Shown piece after piece: positions 3,411 through 35,005 of a stretch of DNA of 39,717 nt. The position numbers were made by a program, and so were the translations under genes. Where the stretch lies: the NCBI GenBank assembly GCA_001724265.1, contig MEDY01000289.1, positions 1 to 39,717 on the forward strand, written 5' to 3'. Below the pieces are notes generated by a model that made no database searches, was not told the DNA's origin, and saw only the letters and a program-made list of their open reading frames with translations. Positions within the stretch are counted from its first letter, which is position 1. Every line of letters starts with the position of its first letter. This stretch comes from Rhizaria sp. SCN 62-66. Its lineage: Eukaryota.

Positions 3411-3444
<34 letters not shown>

Positions 3445-7800: not shown

Positions 7801-8261
7801 CTGTGGTGGTGGTGGTGGTGCTGGCCGTTGCCGCCGTCGTCGTCGTCGTCGGAGCCATGCGCGTAGGCATCGTTGCCGCGGCGCTGAGCCTCGATTCTAT
7901 CGATGTCGACGCTGCCCGTCTGGTCGCGCGCGCCGTCGATGTCGATGGCGCGGCACGAGATGTGCGCGATGATCCACACCAGCTGCGTCTTCTCGTCCAT
8001 GTTCGGCGGCATCGCGCGGGGCAGCGCCTCGGTGACATACTTCCACTCACGCTCGCGCATCTGGTTGAGGTCGTTGGCGTAGGCGAGCTCGTAGTACGTG
8101 TGGCCCTTGGTGAGGATGCGGTAGTTCGGGCGGCCCGAGCTTGACTTGGCCGACTTGCGCTTCTGGAGCACGAAGAGCGGCGACGAGTCGATGTCGACGT
8201 ACTGCGAGAAGCGCTTCATGCGCGTGTACGTCACGCGCTTGACGGGCACGATGAAGACCAT
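4897..8261 (-). CDS. EDR2_C/DUF1336-domain membrane protein; exons 8261-6504 and 6333-4897 (~1064 aa)
   Basis: DUF1336 signatures SDPQGESWPVRCGPNYKKNKKKAPS..LFNLVGMDVFRS, FVVNFSMP, RMKALPRLVN, YLEYCLDIH and DWGFTIEGYEDDEQPEVILGSMRL. Two hydrophobic segments upstream. A phase-0 intron joins the two track ORFs. Stop TGA. Confidence 0.85.
6334..6503 (-). other. Spliceosomal intron, 170 nt
   Basis: Minus strand CAG|gtacgc...tttgcag|GAG, AT-rich, keeps frame inside the DUF1336 domain. Confidence 0.9.
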
Positions 8262-9328: not shown

Positions 9329-11665
9329 ATGGCGTCCACGGCCCCTCTCGTCTCCGAGACGGAGACTTACCTCCGCGCGGAGCTTCAGAAGCGCATCATG
9401 GTGCTCGACGGCGCCATGGGCACGATGATCCAGCGTCACACGCTGACCGAGGCCGACTTCCGCGGCGAGCGCTTCAAGGACCACCCGTGCATGCTCAAGG
9501 GCAATAACGACCTGCTGTCGCTCACGCGCCCCGACATCATCTACGACATCCACCGTCAATACTACGAGTCCGGCTCCGACATCGTCGAGACCAACACCTT
9601 CTCGGGGACGTCGATCGCACAGGCCGACTACCAGCTCGAACCTGTCGTCTACGAGCTCAACAAGGCCTCGGCCGAGCTCTGCAAGAAGGCCGCCAACGAC
9701 GTGGCCGCCGTCGACGGCCGCCGCCGCTTCGTCGCGGGCGCCATCGGCCCCACGAACCGCGTGCTGTCGATGTCGCGCCAGGTCGACGACCCGTCGTTCC
9801 GCGACCTCACCTTCGACGAACTCGTCGCGGCGTACATGGAGCAGATTAATGGTCTTATCGACGGTGGCATCGACATCCTCATGGTCGAGACCATCTTCGA
9901 CACACTTAACGCCAAGGCCGCGCTCTACGCCATCGAGGAGTACTACGCTGCGCACCCTACCCTGCCCCGTCTCCCGCTCATCATCTCCGGCACCATCACC
10001 GACGCCTCGGGCCGCACGCTCTCAGGCCAGACGGTCGAGGCCTTCTACACCTCGGTGCGCCACGCCAAGCCGCTCTGCATCGGGCTTAACTGCGCGCTGG
10101 GCGCGGCCGAGATGCGGCCCTACGTGAAGCGCATCAGCGACATCGCCGAGTGCTTCGTGTCGTGCTACCCCAACGCCGGTCTGCCCAACGCCATGGGCGG
10201 CTACTCGCAGAAGCCCGAGGAGACGTACGGGCTGCTGCGCGACTTTTGCACCGCCGGCTTTGTCAACATGGTCGGCGGCTGCTGCGGCACCACGCCTGAC
10301 CACATCCGCGAGATCGCGCGCTCGACGCTCGACGCGGCGCCGCGCGTGCCGCAGCCCACGTACGAGAACATGCGTCTGTCCGGGCTCGAGTGCCTCGAGT
10401 TCCGCGCGGATACCAACTTCGCCAACATCGGTGAGCGCTGCAACCTGGCCGGCTCGATCGTGTTCAAGAAGCTCATCATGAACGGGCAGTACGAGCAGGC
10501 GCTGGCGATCGCGCGCAAGCAGGTTGAAGACGGCGCGCAGATCATCGACATCAACATGGACGACGGCATGCTCGACGGCGAGGCCGCGATGGTCAAGTTC
10601 CTCCGCCTCATCATGTCGGAGCCGAACATCTCGCACGTGCCCATCATGATCGACTCGTCCAAGTTTGCCATCATCAAGGCCGGCCTGCGCAACGTGCAGG
10701 GCAAGTGCATCGTCAACTCCATCTCGCTCAAGAACGGCGAGGAGGCGTTCCTGGCCGAGGCGCGCGAGGTCATGCGCCACGGCGCTGCCGTCGTGGTCAT
10801 GGCCTTCGACGAGCAAGGCCAGGCCGCGACCAAGGACGAGAAGGTACGCATCTGCAAGCGCGCCTACGACCTCCTCACGCAGAAGCTCAACTTCCCGCCC
10901 TGGGACATCATCTTTGACGCCAACGTGCTGACCATCTGCACGGGTATGTCGGAGCACAACAACTACGCCGTCGAGTTCCTCGAAGGCATGCGCGAGATCA
11001 AGAAGGTCTGTCCGCACGCCAAGTGCTCCGGCGGCCTCTCAAACCTGTCATTCTCCTTCCGCGGGCTCGAGGTGATCCGCCAGGCGATGCACGCTGTGTT
11101 CCTGTACCACGCCATCCGCGAGACCAAGTTCGACATGGCCATCGTCAACGCCGGCGCGCTGCCCATCTACACCGACATCGAGCCCGAGCTGCTGAAGCTG
11201 TGCGAGGACGCCATCTTCAACCGCACCGAGGACGCCACCGAGAACATGATGGCGTTCGCGGAGAAGGAGAAGGAGCGCCTGGCCGCGCTCAAGGCCGCCG
11301 GCGCGGGCGGCGCCGTCGTCGTCAAGAGCAAGGATGCGTGGCGCCAGCTGCCGGTCAACGAGCGCCTGAGCCACGCGCTGATCAACGGTATCGTGGACCA
11401 TATCGACGCCGACACCGAGGAGGCGCGGCTCGCGGCCCCCAAGCCGCTCGAGGTGATCGAGGGCCCGCTCATGTCGGGCATGTCGCGCGTCGGCGACCTC
11501 TTCGGCGCGGGCCAGATGTTCCTCCCGCAGGTGATCAAGTCTGCGCGCGTGATGCGCAAGGCCGTGGCGTACCTGATCCCGTTTATGGAGGCCGAGAAGG
11601 CCGCGCGCGTGGCGGCCGGCGAGGTGGTGAAGCAGGCGGGCACGGTCATTATGGCCACGGTGCAG

Positions 11666-11697
<32 letters not shown>

Positions 11698-13443
11698 CGG
11701 CGTCGTGCTGGGCTGCAACAACTACAACGTCATCGACCTGGGCGTGATGCGGCCCTGCGACGAGATCGTCAAGGCCGCGATCGAGCACAACGCCGACATC
11801 GTCGGGCTGTCGGGGCTCATCACGCCCTCGCTCGAGGAGATGGTCAAGGTCGCCAAGGAGTTCCAGCGCCTCGGCTTCACCTTGCCCATCATGATCGGCG
11901 GCGCCACGACGTCCAAAATGCATACGGCCGTCAAGATCGCGCCCCAGTACGCGTCGCCGTGCGTGCACGTACTCGACGCGTCGCGCTCCGTCACGGTCGT
12001 GGCTTCGCTGCTGGACGAGAACATGAAGCGCCACTTCATGGACGAGATCAAGGAGGAGTACGAGGACCTGCGCAACGACCACTACGAGTCGCTCGACGAG
12101 CGCAAGTACGTGACGCTGGAGCAGGCACGCGCCAAGAAGTTCGCCATCGACTGGGCTGGCACGAAGCAGGAGGACTTGCCGTGCAAGCCGCAGTACCTGG
12201 GTACCAAGGCCGACAAGTGCATCGACCTGTCGCTGCTCCTGCCGCTGATCGACTGGAACCCGTTCTTCCAGGTGTGGCAGCTGCGCGGCAAGTATCCCAA
12301 CCGCGGCTACCCGCGCATCTTCCAGGACGCCGACGTGGGCGCGCAGGCCAAGTCGACCTTCGCCGACGCGGAGAAGATGCTCGCCGCCATCGTCGAGGGC
12401 AAGTGGCTCGAGGCGCGCGTCGCCGTTTCGTACTTCGCGGCGCAGGCCAACGGCGACGACATCGACGTCTTCTTCAGCGACGAGGACCGCGCGGGCGCGC
12501 CCGCGGCGACGTTCCACGGCCTGCGCCAGCAGCAGCAGAAGGAGGATCCTGAGCAGCCCTACGACTGCCTGTCCGACTTCATCGCACCCAAGTCCTCGGG
12601 GCTCAAGGATTACCTCGGCGCCTTCGCCTGCGGCATCTTCGGCGTCGAGGAGAAGGTCGCCGAGTTCCAGAAGGACCACGATGACTACAAGAGCATCATG
12701 GTGAAGGCGCTGGCCGACCGTCTCGCCGAGGCGCTCGCCGAGTACACGCACCGCGAGATGCGCACCAAGACTTGGTACGTTTACATTCACTGTCCAGTAT
12801 ATCTCTAATATCTCTATTATTCAATGTTGGTTCGCCTCCGTATATATTGTCAGCAAGCAAGTATGAGCAAACTATGTTTTGTTTCGCTTCTCTCGCGCTG
12901 CTGTGTGTCCCTCGTACTGCCGTGGCCGGCTTTTTGGTCCTGCCTTGGAATTTTTGGGACTAGATTCTATCTAGTTTTTACTTTATTCTCTTTTACACCT
13001 CGCTATTTGTCCACGATTTTCTTCAATGTCGGCACGATCTCACTCAATATTATCATTATGTTCCTGTTCCCATTTGCGTTTTGTTTCACCTACATCACAG
13101 GGGCTACGCCAAGGAGGAGGAGATGACCGCGGCCGACATGCACCAGATCAAGTACCAGGGCATCCGCCCCGCGCCCGGCTACCCGTCGCAGCCGGACCAC
13201 ACGGAGAAGGGCCTCATGTGGAAGGTCATGGACGTGGCCGCTCTGACGGGCATCACGCTCACTGACTCGTTCGCCATGATGCCCGCGGCGGCCGTTAGCG
13301 CCATCTGCTTCGCGCACCCCAAGGCGCGCTACTTCGCCGTCGGCAAGGTGCAGAAGGACCAGGTCACCGACTACGCGCAGCGCAAGGGTATGACCCTCGA
13401 CCAGGCCGAGTCGGCGCTCTCCGAGCTCCTCTCGTACATGTAA
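9329..13443 (+). CDS. MTR: Cobalamin-dependent methionine synthase; exons 9329-12774 and 13101-13443 (~1262 aa)
   Basis: [17 protein letters not shown] and GGCCGT (homocysteine/Zn), [10 protein letters not shown] (pterin), [11 protein letters not shown] and SGLITPSL (B12 binding), ALADRLAEA and [11 protein letters not shown] (reactivation). Splicing restores WGYA. Stop TAA. Confidence 0.97.
12775..13100 (+). other. Spliceosomal intron, 326 nt
   Basis: TG|gtacgt...catcacag|G, T-rich; removal gives TGG GGC TAC GCC (WGYA). Confidence 0.93.
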
Positions 13444-15059: not shown

Positions 15060-18000
15060 ATGAGTGGTGTCTCCAGATCTATGTCAATTGGCGCGCCATA
15101 CGCTGCTGAAGAATCTACCACAAGCTCAACGATGTTCTCTCCAGCAGCTGAGCAGCGTGCTCTCTACAGCGCCACTGAAAGCTCATCTCTGGGCAGCACT
15201 ACGAGCCCGACACTTTACGTCCCTATGTCGCCCACCTCGTCCGTGTCGCAGCTTGTGTCGCCGCCATACCGCGCGGACAGCGACGGTGCAGCTTCCGCAT
15301 TCGACCAAACACCGGACCAGCAAGAGCGGTCGCAACTGGAGCAGCGCGAGCAGCAGCAACAGCAAACGGGGCCCCATCAGTCCCGCCCGCGTCCCTGCCC
15401 GCGCCCCCTGCAGCAGCCCCCGCAGCCGCGGCCGCCGCCCGTTTCTGTGCAGTCCTCGCTCGCGCCGTCCGCCGCCGCGGGCTCGGCGACCGCGATGTCG
15501 ATGTGGCCGCTCTGCTCCTTCCCGCCCACGCCGGCGCTGACGATGCCGGTCGTCGTCCCGCGCTACCACCCCGCCGCGCGCGCCGTGCCCGCGCTCGTGC
15601 GCGCGTCGCTGGACCGCGATCGCGTGTCGGTGCTTTCGACCACGGCGGCCACAGGGAGGACGACGACGAGGACCAGAACCTTCGCGGCCTCAGCGTCAGC
15701 GTCGTCAAGGACGGCGGGGGCGTCTGCGGTGACGAGGCATGGCGGCACTCAGCTTAGAACAGCGCCAGCGGCAGCGATAGGTGGGGCACGCACGGCTTCA
15801 TCAAATCTTGCTTGCAACAGTAACAACAAGCAAGGCCATTACAACAACAGCAACAACGACATGACCAACGAGAGCGCACCTACGATGACACTGAACGACG
15901 CCACACCAGCAGCGGATTTGCAGTCCACGGCCTCTGCCACCCAACCCCCCATGCTGGACTCCAGCGCACAGCGGTTGGCCGACTCACCGGTGGACGTGGT
16001 TGAGTCGCCGCTGTTCCTGGCCGAGAGCGGGTGCCTCGGTTCGGTGCCGCCGCACGACTACGAGCACGGCTACGGCTACTGCTCGCGGCTAGAGGACCTC
16101 AGCAACCACATGCAGACGCACACGTATGGGCACAGCGGCGGCCACAGTCATTTGCACGGCGGGACTGGGCGTAGTGGAGGTCATTCGGTGACGGTGACTG
16201 TGAGGGCCAACAGTACCAACAACAACAACAACGGCAGCGACGCTTATGTGAACCATCCGAGTACCAATGGTTCACAGAATGTAACTGCTACACTGCAAAG
16301 CCCAGACATGAGCAATCTCACAGCAAACATGAACGCTCGCAGTCACATGCAACACAGCTTCAGTCATCAGGCTGGCATTGCAGACGGTCACAGCGACGAC
16401 GACGGCGAAGGTGAAGAACTCGAGATGACTGCTCTGGGGGGTAGTGATATGGGTAATCTCGAACGAGGACGCGGGCTTCCTCGCTCGTAGTCGCGTGACC
16501 GAGGGCGGCCTAACTTTGTGGCCTCCCCGGGCAGCACAGGGCGCGGATTGCGCCAGAGGCCGATGCGCGACCAGCACCCGAGCCAGGGCCAGGGCCAGGA
16601 GCAGGGACAGGGGCAGGGAAGGAGGCACAGGTCTCGCCGCCGCGCCGTCGTGCCTCTGTTCCTGCCGTTAGTTGACCAAAGGCTAGTGGCGATGCTACAA
16701 ACCCCGAGCAACGACGGCAAAAACAGTAAATGCAGTGGCAACAAAGACACCACAGATAGCAGCGCTGATGCGGAGGCAAGCGCGGTCACCACAGCGCCTA
16801 CGGTCGCGGCCCCCGTTGCGGCGCACACGGTCACAGTGCCCGCTTTGACCTTGCTGGGCACGCTGGGCCTCAAGTGTGCGCTGCCCATCGATGCGGCGAT
16901 CACGCTCACGGCGCACGGCCCCATTCCCCCCGCCGCGCCCATAGTAGCCTGCCCCGACACGGGCACGCTCTACACCGACGCGCGCACCAACCTCACGCTC
17001 TCCTTCCTGCCCCTTGTCGTCTTCTTCATCTTAGCCGGATTGTTCCTTGCCGCCGCCGTGTCGGCGTTCCCGTACCCCTCGCTGGTGTCGACCGCGCTCG
17101 TCATGGTCCCCGTCGCCGCGCTGCTTGCGCTCTGGGCACGCGTACGCGCGCGCGCGCGGCTCGGCTCGCTGCTGAGCGTCTTCGCGCTGGGCGCGTGCGT
17201 CATGCTTGTCGTCACCGTGATTGGGCTCATCGTCTTCTTGCTCATCGCCTGGTTTGCGGGGCTCTTTTCAAGTGCGGCCACAGTTGCCGACGCCACGCCC
17301 GGCGGGCTCTCTCGCGCCTCGGCGCTGCGGTTAGCACTCAGCTACGCCTTCGTCGCGCTCTTCGTCATCGCGCCCAGCGAGGAGGCGATCAAGTACCTGC
17401 TCCTAACGCATCCACGCGCGGCACCGCTGCTGCTGCGCAACTCTCCGGAGTCGCTGCTGTACCACCTGGCGTTTCTGGCGGGCGTCGGCTTCGCCCAGAA
17501 CGCCTCGATCCTGTGGCTGGCAGTGGTGACGTTGCTGCCGTACTACGCTGCGGCCCCGCGCGGGCACACCACCTGGCTGCTGGTCGCCATTACGCTCTAC
17601 AACGCCGTCTTCACAACGCTCTCGCACGTGTTGTCGGGCCACAGCGTCATCTCGACCATCATCCTGCGCCGCTCCTTCCCGCATCGGCTGCCGCGGCAGT
17701 CGCGCCGCTCGCGCCGCCGCTTCGCGCCCTGCCCCGCGTTTGTCGCGGACCGCTGGTACGGGGCCATGATCCCGCCTGTGCTTGCCAGGGGCGTGTTCCT
17801 CACGCTCTTCATTCTGCCCGTTGGCTGGCCCGGTACGTGTGCTTATTGACGACTTGTCGTGACATGTGTATGAACGTGTTTGTCCAGATTTTGTGTAGCG
17901 AATGTCCTGTCCTGTTTCCGAAGTTTTTTCTATGTTATCTACTGATGTTTCTCACTTCAGTGTGCTTTTCATTCCATATTTTGTTTCCTTCGTACAGGCA

Positions 18001-18236
18001 TTTGGGGCATTCTGTCCCTCTACGCTGGCGCGCTGCTGGTATGCGGCGCGCTCTACGCCTACTCGTCGCACCTCGTCCGGCTGCTGCCGCGGAGGTTCCA
18101 CGCCGGACTGGGCGTGCGGGCTACGGTTGAGAAGAAGCGCGGTCGCGGTAGTCCTGTTGCTGCCGTCACGACTGCGCTTCCAACCACGACCACGAATCCG
18201 CTAGGTTCCGCTGCTCCTGTTGGTACTGCAACATAA
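15060..18236 (+). CDS. PrsW-like multi-pass membrane protein with long disordered N-terminus; exons 15060-17832 and 17998-18236; in-frame TAG at 16488-16490 (~1003 aa if read through)
   Basis: Track ORFs 15060-16490 and 16518-17849 share a frame and are separated only by TAG plus nine open codons. The C-terminal half has many TM segments and APSEEAIKYLL, AGVGFA and HVLSG. Exon 2 adds GIWGILSLYAGALLVCGALYAY and ends TAA at 18234-18236. Confidence 0.68.
17833..17997 (+). other. Spliceosomal intron, 165 nt
   Basis: G|gtacgt...ccttcgtacag|GC, T-rich; splicing continues the hydrophobic frame. Confidence 0.85.
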
Positions 18237-18575
18237 CAGAGGAGAGGAGTTGAAAAAATGAAGCACATTGCTTTCACTACTTAGAAACATCCTATTTAGC
18301 TATTATTTTTGTCAAATACATGCTTTTATGTCTTGAACATCACATTTTTAGTTGAGTTTGTAGCTTTTTGCCCGTTGAGGCTGGCCATGATGCCGACTTC
18401 CCCGCCTTGTACCAGATCTTTATTTTTGTTTTCTTCTCCGCAAAGCTCCGTCAATAGAATAACAGACCTTTGTTCGCAAATTAACGGTTTATTTCACATA
18501 TTATTATCTTTTTATACCTCGAAATTCCTGCAGTGTGTGGCATTGCCACCTTCGTAAGCTTGAGGGTGAGAAGCG

Positions 18576-21500
18576 ATGAGCTCCCTCTACAAGCAGAAAC
18601 CAGCGGCGGCTCCTACCTCCACACCTGCGAATGCGACGCAACCGATGACAACTGGAGCACAACTGCCAGTTAGACAAGGACCGACTGGAGCTACCTCTAC
18701 GCAAACCATGTCCGACTCTGACACCGTACAGCCGCCTCATCCCCCTGCTGCCAATGTACCTGCAACCTCTGCGACAACAGCTGTGCCGATCGCAAACCCG
18801 CACCCACGCCCGCTCCCGATGCCGCCGCCGCCCTCCACCGCCGGTGCCAGTCTCTGTCGGCCTACGCTGACAGCGTCGACGTCATCTACCGTGAATGGGA
18901 ACGCTCGTTTTGCCCCGCTGAACGCGTCCGCAGCGACGCGATCGATCTATCGCAACCCCAATGTTAGCAGCAGCTTGAGCGGTAGCACGCGCAGTCACCC
19001 CACCGCGACACGGCACGCCAACAGCAGCAGTGCGAACGTGTATTCCACACAATGCGGCGCGGCTGCTGCCAGTCAGTCTGTGCCACCGCTGCCGTCACAC
19101 CCTGTTGCAGCCCCTGCTGCCGCGGTCCCTCCTGCAGCTGTGACGAACACTGGTGAGTCACCAAACAACCCCGCACCCCAACTTCCGCTGCAGCAACCGA
19201 GGCAACAGCAACAGCCACGGACAGGTTTCCGGCCACTTTGCCCCCCACCACCAGCAGCAGCAACAACGGCGGCAGCAGCAGCAACGGCCCCGTCAGCCGG
19301 AGCGCTCGCGAGCGTGGCGGCCGCGCGCGCGTCTCTCTACAGCGCAAGGCGCGCGCCGTTTGTCCCCGTGGATGCGAGCCAGGGCTCCAGCCAGAATCAG
19401 CCGCAGTCCCACCTGCAGCCGCAGTTCCACTCACAGTCTTCGTCTCAACCACAAAGCTCCATCCAGAGCTGGCGTCAGAGCCAGAACCAGAGCCAGAGTC
19501 CTAGTCTTGAGACCTCCACCCCCACCGATACCTTGATTGCAACTACGACTGACATTTTGTCTGCAGCTGACTGTGAGCCGGAGCCTGCACCCGCAAGCGT
19601 GTCCGCGCACCTGAACGCCTCGCAATGGCGCGCCGTGTCGCTGCCGCGGTCCTCAGCCGCCGTTGTTCTCGCAGGCCCCGGCTCCGGCAAGACGCGCGTG
19701 CTCGTGTACCGCGTCGCCTACCTTATTTCGGTTGCGCGGGTGCTGCCGGACCGGGTGCTCGCGCTTACTTTTACCAACAGGGCCGCCCGGGAGGTCTTGG
19801 CGCGCGTCAAGGCGCTGCAGAGGCAGGGCTACAGCGTGTTCTCGTCCATTGCCACCGGTGACGAGGTCGCTGACGGCGACGACAGTGCTGACTGTAAGAC
19901 CAATGGCGCAGCGAGTTCGAGTAACGGGAAAGGTGGCAGCGCTGCCGGTGTCGGCGTCGGTGGCGGCGAAAAGATGCCCTGGGTCAAGACGTTCCACGGC
20001 TTCGCTCGCATTCTGCTGTCGAACTTCGCGCAGTACATCGCGTTCGCGTCTGAACACGCGGAGCCAGAACCAGATGCTGATGAGACAAGCGCTGACGCAA
20101 GCATTGCTCTTGTTGCTGGCGCTGTCAGCACCGATACTGCACATCTCACAGCTGGTTCAGACTCAGACAGTGATTCAAGCGGTGAGTCTGAACGCGATGA
20201 CAATGACGACGTTGATATTGACGAGTCCGTTTATGATGAATTTTACGCTAGTGCCCGCAGCCAATACGGCAATGTTGTCGGTTGCGCTGCATCTACGCCT
20301 AGGCACACTCATGTGCTTACGAGTCATGCCCACAGCAACTCGCGTGCCCACGGTCACGCCTCGGCTCGCAACCGCGCTGTTGCGCGCGCTTACGCGTACG
20401 CCAACACCGGGGCTCCCGCTCCAGCGCACCAGAGCCTGCACAGCAGCAGTGAAGGTAACCCGCAGCAACAGCGCGGGCGCGACGGCTTCGTCATTGTTGA
20501 CGACAAAGAGCAGACGAAGCTACTTAAGACCTCGATCACGGCTGCGACGATCGGTCTTGCGACTGCGGCTGCATCAGTCTCTTCGATGTCAGCGAAGTCA
20601 GACAATGGCTCTTACTTACCCTTTGATACGAGTGTTGATGCCAACGCGATTGCTGTTACTGCGACTGCTTCTTCTTCTGAAGCACAATCAGAGACTTCTG
20701 ACTTGCCACAGCCCTACACAGGCCTGCTGCCGCGCCCGCTGCTCCCCTCGGCGCCGCTATCCCCGCCCTCCACAACGGAGACAGCGTCGCTGCTGACCGC
20801 GGTGGCGTCCGCGTTTGCGTGCGAGTGGGCCTCGGCGCGGGCCGCGGCGGCGACTGCGCGCAAGGGCGACCAATGCCGGCTCAGTCTGCCGGTCTGCGCG
20901 CTGCGGCTGGGGGACCTGGTGGCGGCGCAGACGCGGCCGCGTTGGCGACTGTGCACCGCGGCGAACAACGACAGCAACGACTGCCACAGCGAGCCAAAGA
21001 GCAGCGGCACAGCCGGCGATGCCTCGGGTGCCCACTCCGAGAGTGTAGTGTTGCAACCCGCGGTCAAGCGGCCCCGCATCGCTGCCAATGACTCTGCGAC
21101 TGCAGCGACTGCGTCTTCGACTGCGCATGAAGCTGAATCCACTGCCAGCGCGGCGACAGCGAGCATCAGCGCGGAGGCCGAGGCGCACGCCGCCGCGGCG
21201 CTCGCGGCAACGACTCCCGCTGCAGCGGCGCAGGCGTGCTTTAACGCGGTCATCTCCCGTGCTCGTGGGACGCCGACGCAGACAGCGTTGTCCGCCGCTA
21301 CTGAACAGCCCCTGCAACAGCAGTTGCACACGAGGACATCGTCACCGTCGCCACAGACTGCGCCCGTGCGCGTGCCGGCCAGCAAGTTCCTGTCCACACC
21401 GCTGCCGACGCAGACTGCCGCGCCCGCGCCCGGCGCGTTCAGCGCGTTCATCGACTGCGCGAAGGCGCACTTCCTTCGGCCCGTCGACGTGCTCGCCCTT

Positions 21501-24500
21501 GCCGTTGCGCTAATGCTGCCGCCGGCCGCGAGCGCCGCCGTGACGGCGCCTGCGACGGTAGCTGCGCCACAGTTGCAGGCGCAGGCGCACCCGCTGGCAA
21601 ACTTATACTCGTCGCAGCTGCAGCAGGAGACTCAGTCACGCTACCAGTCACGGTCTCAATCCCACTCACAACCGCAGCTACAGTCAAGTCGCTATGGCCC
21701 CTCTGCGTCTGCTGGCTTTGGCTTCAGCAGGCCCGGCGCTGCTAGCGCTAGTCTGGACACTGGGGCAGCGGCTCTGGCCGGCTCTTTGTTCAACACGGAT
21801 GCCGATCGCGCGAATGCCAATATGCTTGCCAACAACAAAATCAGCCATGGGAGCATGAGCCAAAACATCAGCGCCAGTCTCAACAGCAATCTCAACAGTA
21901 GTGGCTCCAATGGCGGGTTTGTGCGCGCGTCTGCGATGTTACCGTCGATGAACCGCGGCAATGCCCCTTCAGTTCGCAGCAACGCCCACTTCGGGTCCTT
22001 CATTAACAAGAAGCCTACCGCGCCTGCCATCGCTAGTGACGTCGCCGACGTGGTCGATGACGAGGCTGAAGCTCCCACCCCCCCGCGCGATACATTCATC
22101 TCCGAGGCGGCCGCACGCACTCTGTCGCTTGCGGCCATCATCGCGCCGTCTCTCGCCCATTGCGCCCCGCCGTCAGCCCCACTAGACTCGACATCGGCCG
22201 CCGCTGGTGCGCTGCTCGCCAACACCGTCGCCGGCTACCCACTCTCCCCAGTTTCTGGCCGCGCTGCACCCTTCGCCGCCACCTACGGCGCCGGCGTCTC
22301 GAGTCTCGCCGGCAGCGCAGGCCCCGGGTTGCGCGCGCTGCTGCTCGCGGCCTCGGGGCCCGACGGCGACCTGGCCGTGCTGCGCCAGGGCTTCCGGCCC
22401 TCGGTCTGCGCTGGGTGCGCGGCCAGAGGGCTCTCGGGAGGAGGAGGAGGCGCTCACACTGAGAGTGACGGCGAGATGCTGGAGTCGGCCCTGGGCGTCA
22501 TCACGCCGATCGACGGCCTTGCCGCAGCGGCGCAACATCAGCAACCATTGTAGCAGCCCAGGGCCGCGGCGTCGGCTTCGGCAGATAACCGGCGCCGTTC
22601 TCCTCAGCCCCCGGCTGAGCCGAAGTCTAAGTGCGACTGTGGGCACGGGTCCCAGCGCCGGTCCCGCGTTCTAAGGGGCTGCGAGGACTACGCGGCCGCG
22701 CTGAAGTCATTTTACTTGGACGCCGACATCGCCGCAATCTCGCCCCCGTCAGCACAGTCAATTACGGGTCAGTTACCCACCAGCCAATCAGCTGTGAGCC
22801 AGACTACGGCGAGCCAGGCCGAGGCGCGCCGGGCGGCCACTGTGAGCCGCGGGGTCCTGGACCTGACGACCCGCGTCGCCGAGATGCGACTAGAAGGCCT
22901 TCGCCGCTTACTTTCGCTGCACGCGACAGCGACGACAACAACATCAGCGGCCGTGGCAACTGGGAGTAACACGAATCCTTACAGCAGTGCGTCAAACGAC
23001 GGTCTGGCGGACGTGCTCCCCCGCGCCGCCTCGGTGCTGGCGGCGGCGCTGCCGACCATCGACACGCCGGCCTTTGCGCTGGCAGCGCTCGTGTTCGCGG
23101 CCTACGAGCGCGCCCTTGCGCGCGCGCGCGGCGCCGACTTCAACTCGCTGCTGTCGCACGCGCTGGCGCTGGTGTTGACCCACCGCTCCGTGCAGGGCTG
23201 GGCGGGCCGCCGGTTCGAGCAGGTGTTGGTGGACGAGTTCCAGGACTCGAACGCCATGCAGTACCTGCTCGTGCGCGCCATGGTGCCCGCATTTACCTGT
23301 GGCGGCCCGACCTCTCAGCATGCAGCAATCGCTCTCGACAATCATAACAGCAGCAGCAACAGCAACAGCAACAGCGGCACTAACAAAAGCTTGACTGTGT
23401 GCGACGCAGCCGCGCAGAACTCGTCTCAGCCGGGCAAGAAGGGTTTCTTCGTCGTCGGTGACCCGCACCAGAACATCTACCTGTGGCGCTTCGCGACGCC
23501 GCGCAACATGCAGCTTGTGTTCGAGGACTACGCCAGCGCGGTGCAGGTAAACCTGCGCGAGAACTACCGCTCCACGCCGCGCATCGTCGAGTTCTGCAAC
23601 AAAATCGTGCACGCGACAGCGCCCCCAGCACTTTTACACAGTCCAAATACAACCGGGAGTGGCGCCAAGACGAACGGAAACGGTCTCAATAACACCTACG
23701 ACGGTCGTCCGATAATGCCAGTAGAACGCAGCAGCAACGCCAATTGCGCAGCGCTCACCACGTATCGAGCTCCAACAACCGCTGCGTCGGCCGCAGCTGG
23801 TCCCGCCCCCCCGACTGCTGTCGGAGCCCGTGTCACGCTGCCGCTGGCGCTGCAGCCGCTGGCGCCGCCTCTGTCGTTGCCGTCGCGCATGCTGCTGCCG
23901 GCGCCGTGCCGCTCGCCCGCCGCGGCGCCTGGGCCGGTGCCGTGGCTGCTCGAGTGTCTGGCGCCGGAGCAGGAGGCGCTGTTCATCGCCAGCGCCATCT
24001 ACCAGCTTACGGCCGCGCGGCCCAGCCCCTGCGGCGGCTATTTCCAGCGCGCGCTGTGCGAGCCGCGCGAGATCGCCGTACTCTACCGGACCGCGGCCGT
24101 GGGCAAGACGGTCGAGGCTGCGCTGCGGCAGGCCGCCAAGGCGGCGGCCACCACCTCGGCGGCAGCGGCCCGGACCCAGGGCAAGGAGCGGGGCAGGGGT
24201 TAGCCGAAGCGCGAGAGCGGCTCTGGGGGACGCGAGCCGGGCGGTGGATACACAGGGTTTATGTTCGACTTCTCGTCGACATCAGACTCTGCATCAAGCG
24301 CTGGTAACGTCGCCAACAAGACGGGGCGCTCCCGCGCTGGTGCGGGCTTGACCGTGAGCGAGCGCATGATGCGGTACGTGCTTGCGCAGGGCTTCCCCGA
24401 CGTCACGGGCGACGGGCGGGCCGCAGTCCACGGCTGGGACCCCGAGTGGCGGCCCGAGCCCGGCACGGCAGCGGTCAGGCCGCAGCAGACGCAGAACAAG

Positions 24501-27500
24501 CACTTTGCGACACCGCTCTTTGGCAGCAGCAACAACAAGACTGTTGCCATGACTGATGGCGGCGGCAGCGTTGACGACGCCGAGCTTAGCAGTGGTACCA
24601 CCAAGCCTCTGATGTCGCTGCAGCGCCCGCTGCTGCACGTCGGCTTCACCGTCGTCGGTGGCAGCAAAAGCTACGACCGCAAGGACGTCAAGGACGCGGT
24701 TGCCTACGTGCGCCTAGCCGTCAACGGCGCTGACGCGCTCGCGCTGGAGCGCGCCGTCAACACTCCCCCGCGCGGCGTCGGACCCGCAAAGGTCGCCGCG
24801 CTGATGCACTTCCTGGAGCACGCTGACATTTTTCGGTACCGCGAGCGTGAGCACGAGCGCGAGCGCGCGCGCAGGCGGGCGCAGCGGCGTCGGCTACGTC
24901 CCGGCCAGGCATCTCAGACTGGAGCGAATCGCCCTTTTATCGCAGCCACATCGACCGCTAACATGAACGACGATGACGACGACGGCGGCGGCGACAATAG
25001 CGACGATGACGACTGCAGCTCTGACAGCAGCGACTCCGGAGATGGCAGCACCATAGACCACCCGCGCCGCCCCCGCGGCGGCAAGCGCGGTGGGCCGGAC
25101 TTTACTGACGTCTCGTTTAACCCCGCGCTGTATCGCGGCGAGGGCGCGCTGCCGCCCGGAGTCATCCCCAAGGCAGACCGCAAGGGCGCTGCGACCAACA
25201 CCACCGCGGCGCGCGCTGCCGCCTCCGCGCGGGCCGCGGACGAGCCCAACGCTGCCGCCGCCGCCGCCACAAAGGCTGAGGTCGACGCTGCTGCGAGGGC
25301 GAGGGCGGCTGCTGAGGGCAACGCGACCGGCGAGGGCGTGATTGTGAGCAAGGCTAGGCGGGAAATCAAGGGCCCGTCGAGGCGGCTTAACTTGTTCGAG
25401 CGGCTGCTGTGGGTATTGGACCAGGTCTTCGCGCCCGACGTCGACGCGGTGCTGCGGCAGCAGCAGGAGCAGGCGCACGCGCTCGCACAGGCGCAGCTGC
25501 AGATTCAGCAGCGGACGTTGCGGCAGCAGTCGCAGTTTTATAACCAATTCCAGCCCAGTTTCGACCCTTTCAGCGCTGCTGATGGTGCTGCTGCAAACTC
25601 CGGCAGCGGTGACGTTGTTTCAGATGCTTGGCACCGTCTATCCCCTGATGTCTTTGTCGGAACTGGCTCCGTGGCCGTCGCTTATACGAATAGTGGCACT
25701 GGTTTGAGCCCCATTAGCGTGCAGACGACTGCAGCAGGCATCAGCCCCACCGGTGCCTCACATGTACCGGCCAACGGTAACTCCGTGTTTGTGCGCGCCG
25801 GTGCGCTCTACGCCAACTTCAAGCGCAAGCCGCCTCAGTCAGCCACACCGACTGCATCGACCGCGTCACCGGTGCCGAACACGTGGACTCCATCAGCAGC
25901 TGTGCTCGCGCCTGCACCCGCGCCCGCGTCTGCACCTGCGTCTGTGTCTACACCTGCGACGGAGGCTTCGCCAGCCCAGCCAGGCGCGCAGCCTCATGCC
26001 GTCACGCCGGCGTCAATGGCCGATTTGCTTGCTGCAGTGAAGGCTTCTACGGACGCTGTGACAGCGGGCGACAACAGTACACCTGTCGCAAACACGCCCA
26101 CCGACACTGGTGTCATTTTCGCCACGCGCCCTGGTGCGAGCAGCAATGTGTTGGACCGGCTGATGGCGAACGCTGCCCGCGGCGGCGCGCGCACACCGAT
26201 CTCCAAGCGCAACTCCCCTGCGAAGGTCGCGAAAGCCGCGAACGCTGCAGCCTCGCCCGTTCCCGCTGCGGCGACGGTGCCCAGATCAGCGCCCGCCACC
26301 AAAACGACCGCGCCTGTCGCCGCTGCCAAGGCGGCTGCTGCTGACGCCAAGACCGGCAAGGGTACGCATGCCGTTTCCGCTGCGAGTGCGAGCGGGAGGG
26401 CGCCCGCGAGCGCGAAGTCGCTGTTTGCGCAGTGGCGGCTGCCGCGCGCAGGAGATGGCGGCGGCGCGGAGACTCGCTGCGCTGCTTATAGCGGCGTATC
26501 AATCCACCGTGCGAGCGCGAGTCCACCTGTCCCCGCAGGTGTCGTCGCGCCGATGGTAAAAATCGAGTTGGTTGATGATGGCGACGCTGACGCCAGTCGC
26601 GGCGATGCGGCCCCGACCACCGGCAGCAATCGCACTGACCACGACGATCTCGACGATGACGACGACTATGGTGCGAGCAAGAAAGACAATGCAGCCACAA
26701 GTTTCGCTGTCTTGACAGCGAGCAAGAGCACGAGCAGCACCCCCGCCGCCGTCGAGGATACAAACGGCGTCGGCGTGACCATTGGTGGCGACGTCAGCAA
26801 TGGCTCGCGTCCCATGTCCTACATTATCGCCACCACGAAGCGCCCCACGTCGACGCCGCCGTCCGGTTCCCTTGCTGGCAGCTACCACAACGACATAACA
26901 AGCGCTGGTGCGTTTGTCCCGGCGTTCGGCGCCAACGCCAACAGGTTTCTTCTTCAGTCCGCGGTCGACGGCTCTACGCGCGCTCTGCAGCGGCCCACCG
27001 TTACCCCGCTCTCGGTCGCCACTGCCGCCGCCGCCAATGGGGCTGACTCGGGCGCGGTGGCCAACAGCAGTGTTACCGGCACGACGGGTGCTCCAGCGAA
27101 GGCCGAGCCTCTGCTGCCTGCCGCCCCTGCCGCCACCGCGTCGGCCGCCGCGCGCACTGCGTTCCTCAAGGCGCGGCTGGAAGCGCTCGGCCGCCTCCTG
27201 GGGCTGCCAGCGCTGAGCCTGGTGCAGTGGCAGGCGCTAAGGGACTTCGCGCGGGTTGTCGTCGGCGCGCGGCGCATGGTCTTCGGACTCGGGTCCGCGT
27301 TGTCAGATGCACTGGTGCGTCATGCCCCGAGCGCTAGCGTGGCAGCGAACGACGGAAATGACACCATCAGAGGTGTCTCTACGTCCAGCACCACATCCGC
27401 GGTGTGTTCTAGTGCGGACACCGCAGCACCGAGTGCCAGCGCAGTGTGTGGCGCCGTCTGCGGCGGGTGCAGCCGCCCCGTCGCCCCCAGCTCCGGCGTC

Positions 27501-30476
27501 GCCGCGGCCGAGGCGCAGGCGTTGCGCCGGTCCTGGGGCGTCAAGCGGGCCGCCCGCGCCCAGCGCAGTGTCGCGGGCAGCGGCGGCGCGGACGGCGGCG
27601 GCGACGACGACTCGCGGAGCGACGAAGACGGCGACGATGACAGCGAGCACGAAGATGGAGTCAAGGGCGAAGACGGCGCCGACAGCTTGTTTTGTTCCGC
27701 GGCATCGTTGGCCGCCGGCAGCAATGGCCGCAAGCGTGGCCCTAACAGCTCCGGTCTCCACTGCCAGTGTGGGTGCTTTTGCCACCTCTGTCAGCCACAG
27801 AGGCCGCAACAGCGAATCCCGCCCTTGCTGCAACCTGACACCGATTCGCGCGCTGACGACGGCTACACGCAGGCTGGCACGATGGCGAAGACCGACGCCG
27901 CCGCGCCGACCGTGGGCGCGTCGATCGAGGCTGTGCTCACGTACATCGTCCACGCCGCCGGGTTTGCGGCCCTGCTCGCCCCCGCTGCGGCCGCGGCCCG
28001 CGCCATCAGGACTGCCCTCGCCAAGCAAGAAGGCGACTCTGCTGCCGCAGCATCTCTTGCGGCAGCGGTTGCAGCCGCCAACGGAATTAACTATGACGAG
28101 GACGCTGGCGACATCGAGGACAACAATAGCGCCTCTGCGGCGACTAAACTGAAGACTGAGTCTACCGGTAGCAAAGCCGTGGCGGCTGCGAAAAGTGGTA
28201 AGGGCAAAAACAAGACTGCTGGGATGCCTAAGATCACGGATTTCCTTGCCGCTGCTCCCAGAAACAGTTCGAGCTTAGCGCTGACGGGCGCCGCAACAAC
28301 ATCGCACGCGGGCAGCGGCCCGCAGTCCCGCTCTACGTCGCCCGCCTTCGTCACCGCCCGCTCTGAGAGCATCGCTAGCAGCAGTGACGGCACGATCTCC
28401 AAAGCGCAGGGTGCTGCACCAGCTGTCGCGGCTTCTCCTGCTGCGGCAGATGCCGCTGCCGCCGACGCTCTTGCAGCCGCAGGTGCCGCGGTGCCTTCAG
28501 CGGCGACCGAGGCGTGGGAGTCGTTGCGCGAGCTGCTGCTGCTCGCAAAGCGTGTCGACGATACTACTGCAGCGAATACCAATATCGCTGACCTCAGTTC
28601 CTATCTCGAGCTCTTGGGTTACGATAACCAGAAAATGTCGACTACTGATGATGACGATCTTGACAGTGGCACAAGCCCTGCTACCGCGCACGCCAGCGCG
28701 CGCGTCCTGCCGACCGAGAGCGACAGCGACAGCGAGGGCGAGACCTCGCGGGAAGGCGGCGCGCATGTGCGTGTGACGGTAAAGCGCGGTATCGCGTTCG
28801 CGAGTGGCACTCTGTTTGCTGCGTCTGCTCTCCGCAACAACGTTCATCGTCGCCCGACAGTGCCGCGACTGCAGCACGCGCCATTCGCGCCCAGTGACTC
28901 CCACACGGATGCTCAGCATGCCGCGCCCAGTCTGGACAACACCCCGCGTCACCGCCTCGCCTCGGTCGAGCGCGCGTGGCGCCATGCGGAGCCCGTCACC
29001 GAGTTCCTCTCGGACTGCCTCCTCGACCCCGCGTTGGGGACCGACTTCGCGCCGCAGAGCGATGAAGTCAAGCTGCCGCCTGCGCCTGGGAGCCTGCCTA
29101 CTGTCAAAGAGATGCCCACTGTCAAAGAAGAGGAGACCAAGCTGCAGTCAGAGACGCTCACGCGAACAACGGCAGACTTGCTTTCCACAAGTGGTCTTGC
29201 TGATGTAAGTAAAGGAGCTGCAGATGCGTCCCGTTTACTTCGTTTGCCTAGTCACACGATTAACTTCAACACAATTACCATTCCATCTGATACCGGCGGC
29301 GACGACAGTACACGAGCTCACCGCGCTAGCGCAACTGCAAGCGCGAATGCGAGTGCGAGTGTACGTGCTGCGGCCCCACGCTACACGCCTCCGGACGCGA
29401 ACAACCGCGTGACTCTGTCGACGATCCACGCGGCCAAGGGGCTCGAGTGGCGCGTCGTCTTCCTTGCAGGCGCGCAGGAGGGCTCATTGCCGCACGTGCG
29501 CACGCTTGCCGCACAGCACACCGTCGCAACAGTCGCGTCGGCGACACCGCAACAGCAGCGAACCCAACAGCAACATTTGGCCGAGAGTGAGGAAGTTGCA
29601 GAGGAGCGCCGAATGGGCTACGTTGCTGCAACGCGCGCACGGGAGCGACTGTTCGTAACCTACTGCATCCGTCGCAATTTCGGATATCACAACAACAACA
29701 ACAACAATGACAACAGTGCCGAGGCGCTATTGAAGGATGACGGCGGCTTCGCTGGCGGGCCCCGCGGCGCTGCGGCCGCTGCAGGCGCCGGGTCCGGTAG
29801 CGCTGGCGGCGTCGCCGGCGCTAATGCGAGCGGGGCGGGCAGCGAGTTGAGCCAGGAAGACATGGGGGCTCTCTTCGAGAAGCGGCAGCGCGAGCGCGAT
29901 GCAATCACGCGCAAATACGCACTCGTGCAACATCAAGAGCAGCTGTCACTGCGGCAACGGACGGCTGCGAAGCGCAATAGCTGCACGATGTCTGTATACT
30001 ACGGCGAGGATGAGGAGCAGCAACAACAATACGCGTTGCGGCTGTGGGCCAACCCCGCTGCTCACAGTCATACGCATCACCATCAACAACCCCCGCAACA
30101 ACAGCGGAGTCGCGGGCGCTTGTTAGGGACACTACCCGAGTTTTTGCCGTACTCGCTATCGCGTCTGTCACGTTTTTTTGGGCACATTGAGCTCGCTCCG
30201 ATATACGTTGCACCATCTACATCTACTGCATCTGCGACTTTGCCTGCGACTTTGCAGCGTCAGAACCAGGCAACGTCGTCGAGTGCAAGTTTGAATGCCA
30301 CCGGGACGCTAGGTCAGAGCGAGCTAGTTGAGCATGTTAGGGGGGACTGGGGCGTGCAGGTGCGCACGGTCTCTTTGGCGCGCCCGATCTTTGAGTTGAT
30401 CAATGGGGAGGCGCTGCAGCGTGAGGAGCAGCAAAGGAGGGACCGGCAGGAATGGCGCGGAGATGACGACGACTAA
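18576..30476 (+). CDS. Giant UvrD/PcrA/Srs2-family SF1 DNA helicase (~3966 aa if read through) with in-frame TAG at 22551 and 24201
   Basis: Motifs in canonical order in one frame: LNASQ, AGPGSGKT (19671), LTFTNRAA, TFHGFA, then TAG, DFNSLL, VDEFQDSNAMQY (23229), VGDPHQNIYLWRFA, ENYRST, IAVLYRT, then TAG, YDRKDVKDAVAYVRL..NTPPRGVG, TIHAAKGLEW (29421), EERRMGYVAATRARERL (29601). Final stop TAA, then AT-rich spacer. Confidence 0.88.
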
Positions 30477-31478: not shown

Positions 31479-34400
31479 ATGCTTCGCAGTCGGTTTACCA
31501 CTGCCGCGTGCATCCTTGTTGTCGTCGCGTGCGCTTCGTTTGCGGCTGCTCAACAGAGCCCCGGCAACGATGGCTGGCGTCAATGCACTACGACCAACTT
31601 TTGCTATCGCACACGCGAGCGCGCGCCGGTCTCTTACTCCCTCTCGAACGTTGAGCACACAGATAACGGCGTGACCACATTCCGTCTCAATGCCCAGAAC
31701 GTGGACCCCGCGCTGTACCCGTCACACCTTGAGGCCGAACTTGGTCTGCTGACCTCGGGCGCCGTGCACTTCCGCGTCACCGAGTCCTCGGATATCACCG
31801 ACAAGAAGGGCAAGCGCTTCGAGGCCGCGCCCTACGTGCTCGTTCCCGACGCCCTTACGATTGAGCCCAACCCGACGCGCTTCTTAGACGAGACCTATTT
31901 CACCATCTCGCGCCCTAACGGGACGCACGGGATTAAGGTACTCTTCAAGCCCTTCAAAATGCAGTACATCATCAACAAGTTCGAGGTCATCGCCGAGTTC
32001 AACAGCGAGAGCTTCTTCAACGTCGAGCAGCGCCGCGCGCGCCATGCGAGCGACCCCGCCGAGGCGTGGAAGGAGACCTGGGACGGCTGGACCGACACCA
32101 AGCGCTTCGGCCCCTCTGCGCTCACCTTCGACGTGTCGTTCCCGGAGTCGCAGGCGCTGTTCGGGCTCCCGGAGCACACCAACAACATCGCGCTCAAGCG
32201 CACGCGCGGCAAGGACCGCGAGCACGACGAGCCCTACCGCCTGTACAATCTCGACGCGTACGGGCACCCGCTCGACTCGCCCGCCGCGACCTACGGCATC
32301 GTGCCCCTCGTCACCTCGCACTCGATCCGCGGCGGCAACGGCAACGGCAACATCCAGTCCGCCGCTGACGGCAAGCCTCTGCGCGAGACGCGTCTGCGCC
32401 GCATGTACAACGATGCCGTGTCTGCCAGCTCCGCCGCGAAGCTGTTCTCGGTCTCCGCGGGCGTTTTCTTCCTGAACCCGTCCGAGACCTTCGTCGACGT
32501 GGGCCGCTCCGAGCGCGACGGCACCCCCTACACGCGCTGGATGGCCGAGTCGGGCGTGCTGGAGCTCTTCTTTCTGGGCGGCAACACGCACGCCGACGTG
32601 GCGCGCCAGTACCACCTACTCACGGGGCTGCCGCGACAGCCGCCAGCGTTCGCGATGGGCTACCACCAGTCGCGTTGGAATTATGTCGACGACAAGGACC
32701 TCACCGACGTGGCCAACAAGTTCACAGAGTACAAGATCCCCATGGACGTCATGTGGCTCGACATTGACCACACGGACCAGATGAAGTATTTCACCTGGGA
32801 CAAGAAGGCCTTCCCGAATCCTGCCGTGATGCAGAACTACATCGGCATGGACGGCCGCCAGCTCGTCACTATCGTCGACCCCCACATCAAGACCACGCCC
32901 GGTACGGTGAAATAACGAACGCCACGGTATTTGTGAACAAAATCACATCACAACACATATATCTGAACCATCGTTTTTCTCACTCTTTTAACTTGTTGTT
33001 GTCTCTTTTGCTGTGATTTGCATTACTGTTTGTCGCTCTAGGCTACCACGTGTACGACGCGATGACCGCGGGCGACCTGTTCATCAAGGACGGCGCCAAC
33101 AATACCTTTGTCGGCGAGTGCTGGCCGGGCCGCTCGAGCTGGGTTGACTTCACGCTGCCCAAGGCGCGCGCGCAGTGGGGCGAGTTCTTTGCGCTCGACA
33201 GCTACAATGGCTCCACCGTCAACCTGCACATCTGGAACGATATGAATGAGCCCTCGGTCTTTTCGGGCCCCGAGAAGACGATGCCCAAGGACGCGCTGCA
33301 CAACAACGGCGCGATCGAGCACCGCGAGCTTCATAACCTCTACGGCTTCCTCTACAACTCGGCCTCGAGCGACGGCCTCTCCGCGCGCCAGCTCAAGTCG
33401 GTCCCCGCGCCGCCGATGATGGCGCCGCCCGCAGACGCGCCCAAGGGCTCCGTTACCGTGACCCCGGTCGCTGGCGCGGCCATCTCGGCGCAGCGCCCGT
33501 TCCTGCTTACGCGCTCCTTCTTCGCCGGCACGCAGCGCATCGGCGCCGTCTGGACCGGCGACAACCAGGTACATGCTCACCCTCGCAATCTCCCTTGCTA
33601 CATCACATCCGTTTATTGCGATGTCGTCCAATTTCTCTTCGAATCAACGATTTTATGTTCCGTAAATTTTAAATATACCTGTTAGTGCATATCTCATCGA
33701 GTCATACCTTGTTTTGTTTCTATTTTCTCTATTGTGAATGTGAACAACAGGCCACGTGGGGCTTCCTGCGCTACTCGCTGCCCATGCTGATGAACCTCGG
33801 CATTGGCGGCATCTCCTTCTCCGGCGCTGACGTCGGCGGCTTCGCGGGCAACCCCGACGTGGAGCTGCAGACGCGCTGGTACCAGGCCGCCGCGCTGACG
33901 CCCTTCTTCCGCGCGCACAGCAGCAACGACACCGCGCGCCGCGAGCCCTGGCTTTACGGCGAGCCGCACGTGAGCAACATCCGCGACGCCATCCGCGTGC
34001 GCTACACGCACATGCCCTACGTCGTTACGCAGTTCCGCCACGCCAACGCCACCGGCCAGGCCCCGCTCCGTCCGCTGCTTCAGGTACGCGCGCGCCCTTG
34101 CATTCGCAGTGCAACAATTGAACGTGTGATGTCTTGAGTGATTATATCACAAATGAAACGATCATATTTTCATTGCATTACAGCTCTGGTATCATTCAAT
34201 TTCTCAAAAGCACATCATTCTCACACGTCTTTATTGTTCTCTTCTGACCGTTTTATGATAGGCGTTCCCCCTCGACTCCAAGGTCATCTTCACGGACGAC
34301 GTGTACATGCTGGGCGACGCCGTGCTGGTGGCGCCCGTGCTCGAGGCCGGCAAGTCCACGGTCGACTTCTACATGCCGCTCGAGACGGACGGCAAGCGCT

Positions 34401-35005
34401 CCGTGTGGTACGACTCGCGCACGCTGGTCCGGGTCGCGCCCAAGGACCACTCCGACGAGTGGGCCGTGCTGGCGGCGCCGCTGTCGTCGATCCCCGTGCT
34501 GTACCGCGGCGGCCGCATCATCGTGACGCAGCAGCGCGCGCGCAAGGCCACGAGCGGCATGACGGCGGACCCCTACACGGCAGTCGCCTGCCTCCGCGAC
34601 AACGCCGCTTCCGGCGACGTCTACATCGACGACGGCGCCACGTTTAAGTTCCTTAACGGTACCTACGTCTACCGCAAGCTCGCCGTGCAGATGACGCTGC
34701 CCAGCGCCAGCGGCGTCCCGGGCCAGCTCGTCTTTACCTCCACGGCGGCCACCGTGCCGTCGATCGTCGACGCGCCCGCGCACAAGCCCGAGGCCGTGGC
34801 CAACAACGTGCTCGACTCTGTCCACGTGTTGGGCTTCCCGCGCGGCGTCGTCGCCGGCAAGGCCACCGTCACCACGGCTGCGGGCGTCACGCGCGCCGTG
34901 AGCATCACTGTTGTCGCCGAGACCAACGTGCTGCTGATCCAGAGCGCCGACATGCTCGTTAGCGACGAGCTCACCGTCACCATCGAGCTTACCAACTCCG
35001 ATTAA
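31479..35005 (+). CDS. GANAB: Glucosidase II alpha subunit-like GH31 enzyme; exons 31479-32901, 33042-33568, 33751-34083, 34262-35005 (~1008 aa)
   Basis: Signal peptide-like N-terminus; GLPEH, EPYRLYNLD, GYHQSRWNY, WLDIDHT..KYFTWD, catalytic WNDMNEPSVF, WTGDN, GADVGGF, PFFRAHS, RREPW and LVAPV. Three GT-AG introns restore the frame. Stop TAA. Confidence 0.92.
32902..33041 (+). other. Spliceosomal intron, 140 nt
   Basis: G|gtacgg...gctctag|GC; gives DPHIKTTPGYHVY. Confidence 0.9.
33569..33750 (+). other. Spliceosomal intron, 182 nt
   Basis: CAG|gtacat...aacaacag|GCC; gives WTGDNQATWGFL. Confidence 0.9.
34084..34261 (+). other. Spliceosomal intron, 178 nt
   Basis: CAG|gtacgc...ctgac...atgatag|GCG; gives RPLLQAFPLD. 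Confidence 0.9.

Follow-up and report, generated by a model that had tools for sequence, protein, structure and literature searches.

The DNA analysed here, called the window below, is a 39.7-kb stretch of nuclear DNA (39,717 nucleotides; contig MEDY01000289.1, deposited as Rhizaria sp. SCN 62-66) in which exons of 60%–75% guanine plus cytosine (GC) alternate with introns and spacers of 34%–45% GC. Two adjacent genes on the forward strand contain in-frame TAG triplets, namely, a membrane-protein gene (15060..18236; 1,004 codons, TAA stop at 18234) and an intron-less gene for a UvrD/PcrA-like superfamily 1 (SF1) helicase (18576..30476; 3,967 codons, TAA at 30474). The original prediction, that UAG is a rare sense codon in this organism, placed the triplets at 16488, 22551 and 24201, and all three positions were borne out. 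TAG 1 (16488..16490, + strand) is codon 477 of the 1,004 in the membrane-protein gene (context tcg TAG tcg, next base T), whereas TAG 2 (22551..22553, +; ttg TAG cag, next base C) and TAG 3 (24201..24203, +; ggt TAG ccg, next base C) are codons 1326 and 1876 of the helicase gene. The predicted same-frame continuation is also present, in that 15060..16490 joins 16491..17849, and 18570..22553 joins 22554..24203 and then 24204..30476. Frame 0 of the helicase open reading frame (ORF) has two TAGs and the terminal TAA in 3,969 codons, compared with 64 and 139 stops in the other frames; the membrane-protein gene has a single TAG in frame 0 and 28 and 17 stops in the others. Window-wide counts of codons and stops are based solely on nine gene models totalling ~10,580 codons, in which the three TAGs (0.03% of codons) are the only internal stops. 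In-frame TAA or TGA as common as TAG, an outcome that the original prediction regarded as adverse if seen genome-wide, does not occur in the window: there are three TAGs and no TAA or TGA. Nor is there an AT-rich spacer at the TAGs, again as predicted, with GC of 0.66–0.70 within 100 nucleotides (nt) on each side. All three lie in low-complexity insertions of their proteins.

The TAGs are genuine and stable DNA, and at least two further studies (2017 and 2025) recovered them in their assemblies. Four sequencing runs were aligned to positions 12000-31999 of the window, assembled contigs being compared rather than raw reads. Run X1, a possible source of the sequence, yields a single contig over 13156-31999 with 0 differences (coverage of this organism in X1 is ~37x), and run X3, from another study, bridges all three TAGs with contigs 15425-21344, 21346-22649 and 22772-25303, also with 0 differences. 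In run X4, obtained in 2025 by a third study, contig 15703-17676 keeps TAG 1 and differs at three other sites; contig 24178-25008 shows TAG 3 with only 23 nt to its left and was not counted as bridging. In none of the four runs is a TAG listed with a variant letter, and neither a near-identical paralogue nor a TAG-free second copy appears in them. In the public protein collection, the helicase is stored in three separate pieces whose boundaries coincide with the TAGs or follow them closely; the pieces are found on 4–6 contigs, the one that ends at TAG 2 (P0005) being present on six. One contig with these genes has a length of 120,861 bp. Thus, an assembly or sequencing error, or a chimeric contig, deserves next to no credence: separate assemblies from three studies (X1, X3 and, for site 1, X4) are identical at the TAGs, ORF pieces starting or ending at the TAGs recur across contigs, and no point speaks in favour of an error. 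The assembly error or CAG variant that could have overturned the original prediction did not turn up in the assembled contigs. The X4 strain also carries a 3-base TAA insertion at 31166, in the AT-rich spacer before the glycoside hydrolase (GH31) gene, which is the only insertion or deletion (indel) listed over 20 kb.

Judged by its domains, the helicase gene is of the UvrD/Rep/PcrA SF1 type, with the N-terminal ATPase domain PF00580 (E 1.2e-41) and the C-terminal domain PF13361 (E 4.3e-34), both above the curated Pfam cut-offs, and it is swollen by low-complexity insertions. When the pieces were scanned one by one, PF00580 profile positions 1-100 were found before TAG 2 and positions 162-236 after it, so that this TAG separates two halves of the domain, and PF13361 was found after TAG 3. 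The TAGs separate motifs I/Ia, II-IV and V/VI, represented by what we take to be the corresponding sequences GPGSGKT, VDEFQD, GDPHQNIY, NYRST, TIHAAKGLEW and ATRARERL, all of which are intact. TAG 3 lies within an insertion of ~160 residues between the ‘EIAVLYRT..EAALRQA’ and ‘VVGGS..RKDVKD’ blocks, and among the 150 best HMMER matches, ordinary UvrD/PcrA proteins of 600–800 residues align in 3–4 stretches straddling it. The same searches recovered an orthologue from another metagenome organism (P0131) that is encoded by one unbroken ORF of 2,994 residues, collinear with all three pieces. At the place of the TAG 3 insertion this protein has an insertion of ~180 residues and, because this insertion lies in an unbroken ORF, it is translated in the relative and is not an intron. 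In the window, the frame-0 codon signal stays best-scoring across TAG 2 and TAG 3. Given the split PF00580, the motifs on both sides of the TAGs and the unbroken orthologue, a working helicase would need both TAGs to be decoded; the product contains all its conserved motifs only if TAG 2 and TAG 3 are read through. The window helicase and P0131 appear to represent a giant eukaryote-type UvrD-like family with common blocks outside the core, such as ‘PW..ECLAPEQEA’ and ‘ERLLW.LDQV’. A metagenome scan with helicase peptides found no close relative, and a protein word search with residues 1200-2100 returned nothing of near length; at shorter lengths, the same region recovered the window's own three pieces and two UvrD/PcrA-type helicases with 27%–32% identity.

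The membrane-protein gene consists of exon 1 (15060-17832), an intron (17833-17997, GTACGT..TACAG) and exon 2 (17998-18236), all on the + strand. Its product combines a low-complexity N-terminal half with a C-terminal domain that crosses the membrane several times. Past TAG 1, the GC-rich ORF continues without an AT-rich spacer and then runs through the normal intron to the TAA stop, whereas every real spacer in the window is at least 330 nt long and AT-rich. The need for read-through is weaker for this gene than for the helicase. A Pfam search with the product gave no match even at E ≤10. The membrane half (16731-18236) had the PrsW family as its best match in a protein atlas (score 0.90, 191/256 features) and a ‘SEEAIKY’ stretch is reminiscent of what we presume to be the PrsW EExxK motif; the protein may be a PrsW-like intramembrane protease, an assignment we offer as a lead.

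The original prediction stated that genes in this stretch end in TAA or TGA and never in TAG, and this holds for all eight visible ends. Seven are TAA (206, 4226, 13441, 18234, 30474, 35003 and, on the minus strand, 35691) and one is TGA (4899, minus strand), a dominance of TAA that persists despite a GC content at third codon positions (GC3) of 0.55–0.94. The following base also sets the two groups of triplets apart, being a pyrimidine after all three in-frame TAGs and a purine after seven of the eight true stops (P = 0.024).

Seven introns of 140–326 nt were mapped from reading frames and Pfam continuity, namely, that of the membrane-protein gene (17833-17997), one each in the genes for methionine synthase (12775-13100), malic enzyme (36097-36266, minus strand) and an EDR2_C-domain protein (6334-6503, minus strand), and three in the GH31 gene (32902-33041, 33569-33750 and 34084-34261). 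Their donors are GTACG in five cases and GTACA and GTATG in one each, so that all seven conform to GTAYR; the acceptors are YAG. GC is 0.34–0.39 in the six introns measured, compared with 0.64–0.76 within 50 nt of the TAGs. The combination of uniform 5' splice sites and AT-rich introns in GC-rich exons could also serve as a binning signature for contigs of this organism. The absence of a GTAY..AG intron near the TAGs, another element of the original prediction, was upheld: sites 2 and 3 have no GTAYR donor and the best candidates at site 1 are 57%–59% GC. Contigs assembled from polyadenylated RNA lie on both TAG-containing genes downstream of the TAGs, including one at 16921-17162 in the membrane-protein gene. 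In the helicase gene, RNA contigs are located in pieces 1 and 3. RNA depth is zero in all four intergenic bins.

Besides error, other explanations that keep the standard code deserve consideration. The TAGs might be removed from or altered in the mRNA, either by GC-rich in-frame introns of a second type or by editing. Each TAG overlaps a GT (GTAGTC, GTAGCA and GTTAGC), in-frame GT..AG pairs span the three sites by the hundred (198, 140 and 174), a GC-rich class could have escaped a survey that found introns through their AT-richness, and no listed RNA contig crosses the sites. However, none of the three overlapping sequences fits the GTAYR donor of the seven real introns, the surroundings of the TAGs are much richer in GC than the measured introns, and no candidate intron between such pairs has a GC below 0.53, 0.66 and 0.69 at the three sites, respectively. 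Moreover, each of the three introns would need a length divisible by three and no further stop, a coincidence of ~1 in 100 by our estimate, and no frame-breaking GC-rich intron is seen in any of the nine genes. The frame-0 codon bias persisting across sites 2 and 3, the translated insertion of P0131 at site 3 and the RNA run, whose listing has neither a splice joint nor a variant letter at these triplets, point the same way. An ordinary intron at the TAGs is very unlikely, and to removal or alteration in mRNA of any kind we give a slim chance. Alternatively, the code may be standard and readthrough, whether leaky or programmed, may occur at the three sites: UAG would continue to terminate other genes, and near-cognate tRNAs would here yield some full-length protein. 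This would agree with the pyrimidine that follows each TAG, which is a weak termination context, and with TAG CAG CCC at site 2, which is close to what we take to be the CAR-YYA readthrough context. Yet hardly any full-length helicase would result if readthrough had to succeed twice in a row, no significant structure is present in the 120 nt downstream of each TAG (fold z-scores of −0.67, −0.86 and −1.63; controls, +0.63, +0.42 and −0.68) and TAG is found at none of the eight gene ends. We regard this explanation as distinctly unlikely, if slightly less so than changes in the mRNA.

Inactivation of the genes is the more serious challenge. A long-decayed pseudogene was ruled out by the lack of frameshifts (and of any TAA or TGA in 4,971 codons), by the intact motifs on both sides of the TAGs and by the unbroken orthologue. 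By contrast, recent nonsense alleles, that is, young pseudogenes under the standard code in which downstream frames, motifs and transcription have yet to decay, are a serious rival, although we judge it unlikely to be the right one. Strain polymorphism looks neutral, as only 4 of 13 single-nucleotide polymorphisms (SNPs) are synonymous; TAG would be expected from ~60% of nonsense mutations in these CAG-rich genes; both genes show weak codon bias (GC3 of 0.71 and 0.76 vs 0.90–0.94 in the methionine synthase and GH31 genes) and encode largely disordered proteins; and no relative shows TAG at these places. Set against this, the rival would need two adjacent genes to have been hit three times independently while 14.9 kb stayed free of frameshifts and of any other stop. 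Nonsense changes make up only ~2.3% of random substitutions, and a second neutral nonsense hit in the helicase would therefore imply ~40 other substitutions and, with an indel rate that is our own estimate, several indels, none of which is seen. The helicase motifs and the blocks conserved with the orthologue are intact beyond the TAGs, mRNA is still present downstream of them, and the TAGs are common to assemblies made between 2015 and 2025 in three studies, including a strain at 0.1% divergence. Furthermore, none of the eight gene ends is TAG and no functional paralogue surfaces in the contigs of the runs.

With error excluded, an ordinary intron very unlikely, an old pseudogene excluded and no TAG among eight gene ends, the reading of UAG as an amino acid is the best single explanation, and we place its probability a little above even. 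The proposal of a rare UAG sense codon is thus supported in part: the TAGs are real, the helicase spans two of them and no visible gene end is TAG, but none of the three falls in a conserved alignment column. Under this explanation, UAG would be an inefficient stop in this organism, at which the ribosome inserts an amino acid with the help of a tRNA that acts as a suppressor or has been reassigned, of an eRF1 that binds UAG less tightly, or of both. Gene ends would be marked by UAA and rarely by UGA, and UAG would be very rare as a sense codon; within the window it is confined to long genes whose codon bias is weak, and there to regions that encode disordered protein of low complexity. Such rarity and placement would fit a young or inefficient reassignment. 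The actual decoding, the inserted amino acid and the decoding tRNA we infer.

Several observations weigh against UAG as a sense codon. The sample amounts to three codons in two adjacent, weakly constrained genes, the other seven genes having none, and the coding signal around TAG 1 (16368-16607) is weak. P0131, the only orthologue, has no in-frame TAG and no TAG of the window falls in a column alignable with it, so no amino acid can be assigned to UAG. Searches of the window found no tRNA gene, hence no tRNA(CUA) there, and no Rfam match, and the gene for eRF1 lies outside it. None of the eight listed RNA pieces crosses a TAG, the uncovered stretches being uninformative. The 13 SNPs that distinguish the X4 strain from the window comprise 4 synonymous and 9 non-synonymous changes, against a neutral expectation of 29% synonymous, and an omega of 0.3 or below is rejected (P = 0.048); one of these SNPs, at 19471, was called in a repeat-rich stretch and could be of foreign origin. 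Under the standard code with a 15%–35% share of TAG, zero TAG among eight ends has a probability of 0.03–0.27. Finally, the argument that all three internal stops are TAG, made in the original prediction, is correct as a count and carries little weight, because the codon make-up of the two genes directs 58%–62% of random one-step nonsense mutations to TAG; the probability that three of three stops are TAG by chance is ~0.20–0.24. A 40-kb window alone cannot prove a change of code. More tentatively, the source may be a GC-rich non-ciliate protist, possibly a rhizarian, in which the reassignment of UAG is still at an early or an ambiguous stage, with UAG gone from gene ends and just starting to return as a rare sense codon in disordered proteins of weak expression, a scenario we hold to be possible but short of probable.

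The remaining genes of the window provide the background to these comparisons. On the + strand, a 5'-cut gene ends at 206 with TAA and is followed by a gene for an AAR2-like splicing factor recognized by Pfam (587..4228; 1,214 codons, TAA stop), which is swollen by insertions such that ~500 residues separate its two Pfam domains. The EDR2_C-domain protein gene, also identified by Pfam (4897..8261, − strand; two exons, TGA stop), precedes that for the B12-dependent methionine synthase MetH (9329..13443, +; two exons, TAA stop). Beyond the helicase lie the genes for the GH31 glycosidase (31479..35005, +; four exons, TAA stop) and malic enzyme (35689..37862, −; two exons, TAA stop), and a B-box gene truncated at its 3' end by the window edge. 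MetH, GH31 and malic enzyme, with GC3 of 0.81–0.94, served as controls; MetH has no in-frame stop and a GC3 of 0.94. These three proteins are of ordinary size, unlike their neighbours encoded at 587-4228, 4897-8261, 15060-18236 and 18576-30476, which are swollen by low-complexity insertions rich in Ala, Ser, Thr, Gln and Asn. In-frame TAGs also occur in the 5' leaders of MetH (9314), GH31 (31401) and the B-box gene (38720), 12–75 nt before the start ATG; reading them as sense gains no upstream ATG, and these triplets are uninformative.

Several studies from 2015 to 2025 have metagenomes of bioreactors, wastewater and activated sludge that contain near-identical DNA, which identifies the source as an uncultured wastewater protist. 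MetH is 73% identical to, and forms one clade with, two metagenome proteins (P0024 and P0025), followed by the cercozoan sequences of Mataza (63%), Paulinella (61%) and Amorphochlora (60%). In a FastTree phylogeny of 40 MetH sequences, a single-gene tree without support values, the window clade adjoins rhizarian and cercozoan sequences; the host is possibly affiliated with Rhizaria, which we treat as a lead. The two metagenome relatives are encoded on contigs of 181,966 and 30,274 bp, so that related uncultured protists exist in public data. Among the 80 loci listed in a metagenome scan with P0024, the only close one (L001) is the window itself (8919-13797, 100% identical), the 80 loci listed in a scan of GTDB genomes with P0025 are all bacterial (41%–60% identity), and two scans of viral contigs for relatives returned nothing.

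If UAG is indeed a sense codon in this organism, gene callers would split its genes at every TAG, as has already happened to the publicly stored helicase, and wastewater metagenome bins of eukaryotes would have to be translated with another table. Eukaryotic eRF1 recognizes UAG and UAA together, and a change of UAG alone is known from few lineages: a single sainouroid rhizarian, a single fornicate and a number of ciliates. Another case of independent origin would inform on how eRF1 and tRNAs come to treat UAG and UAA separately; the kind of code change would be a known one but the lineage new, possibly at an early stage. Reassignment of stop codons is usually seen in AT-rich genomes, a base composition opposite to that found here, and an early-stage reassignment, if real, would offer a natural snapshot of codon capture in a GC-rich genome. 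The case may be unreported, as the original prediction suggested, in that literature searches retrieved nothing of the kind for GC-rich non-ciliates or for protists from wastewater; literature on rhizarians, cercozoans, sainouroids and Rhogostoma combined with wastewater contained no UAG-only report beyond the cases in PMC5304391 and PMC11687900.

With ordinary nonsense pseudogenes the two genes share stops of the mutationally commonest kind and neutral-looking SNPs, but differ in having no frameshift, no other type of stop, intact catalytic motifs, transcription and stability from 2015 to 2025. Among phyllopharyngean ciliates, UAG has been repeatedly reassigned on its own to Leu or Gln; UAA has become fixed there as the favoured stop, and genes for suppressor tRNA(CUA) have been found (PMC11687900). 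UAG is widely used in those ciliates, whereas it is nearly absent here, and a 40-kb multi-gene contig with GC-rich exons and introns of 140–326 nt is not ciliate-like. Oligohymenophorea sp. PL0344 is reportedly grouped with the ciliates that have UAG-only changes (PMC10553269). In the fornicate Iotanema spirale, UAG encodes Gln, and UAA and UGA are kept as stops (PMC5304391). The likeness lies in a UAG-only sense codon with UAA and UGA stops in a free-living protist of low-oxygen habitats; what differs is that UAG is frequent in Iotanema, and no phylogenetic link to the window organism is seen. The window introns are presumably without metamonad features. The remaining case is the rhizarian exLh (Sainouroidea), in which UAG encodes Leu (Panek et al., 2017; PMC5304391). 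There, 71 genes contain 384 UAGs, many of which align with conserved Leu positions, gene ends comprise 56 UAA and 15 UGA, and genes with high expression avoid UAG. The one sainouroid genome on record has 37.7% GC (PMC10770858), in contrast to the exons of 60%–70% GC compared with it here; Rosculus, with a genome of 37.7% GC, was rejected as the source for this reason. Measured against exLh, the window has 3 UAGs in 9 genes, none at an alignable column, and its MetH is only 60%–63% identical to cercozoan MetH. Nonetheless, the two cases resemble each other in being non-ciliate, in using UAG alone among the stop codons in frame, in their UAA-dominant gene ends (56:15 in exLh and 7:1 here) and in the avoidance of UAG in highly expressed genes, and the window organism, in the tree of this one gene, adjoins rhizarians.

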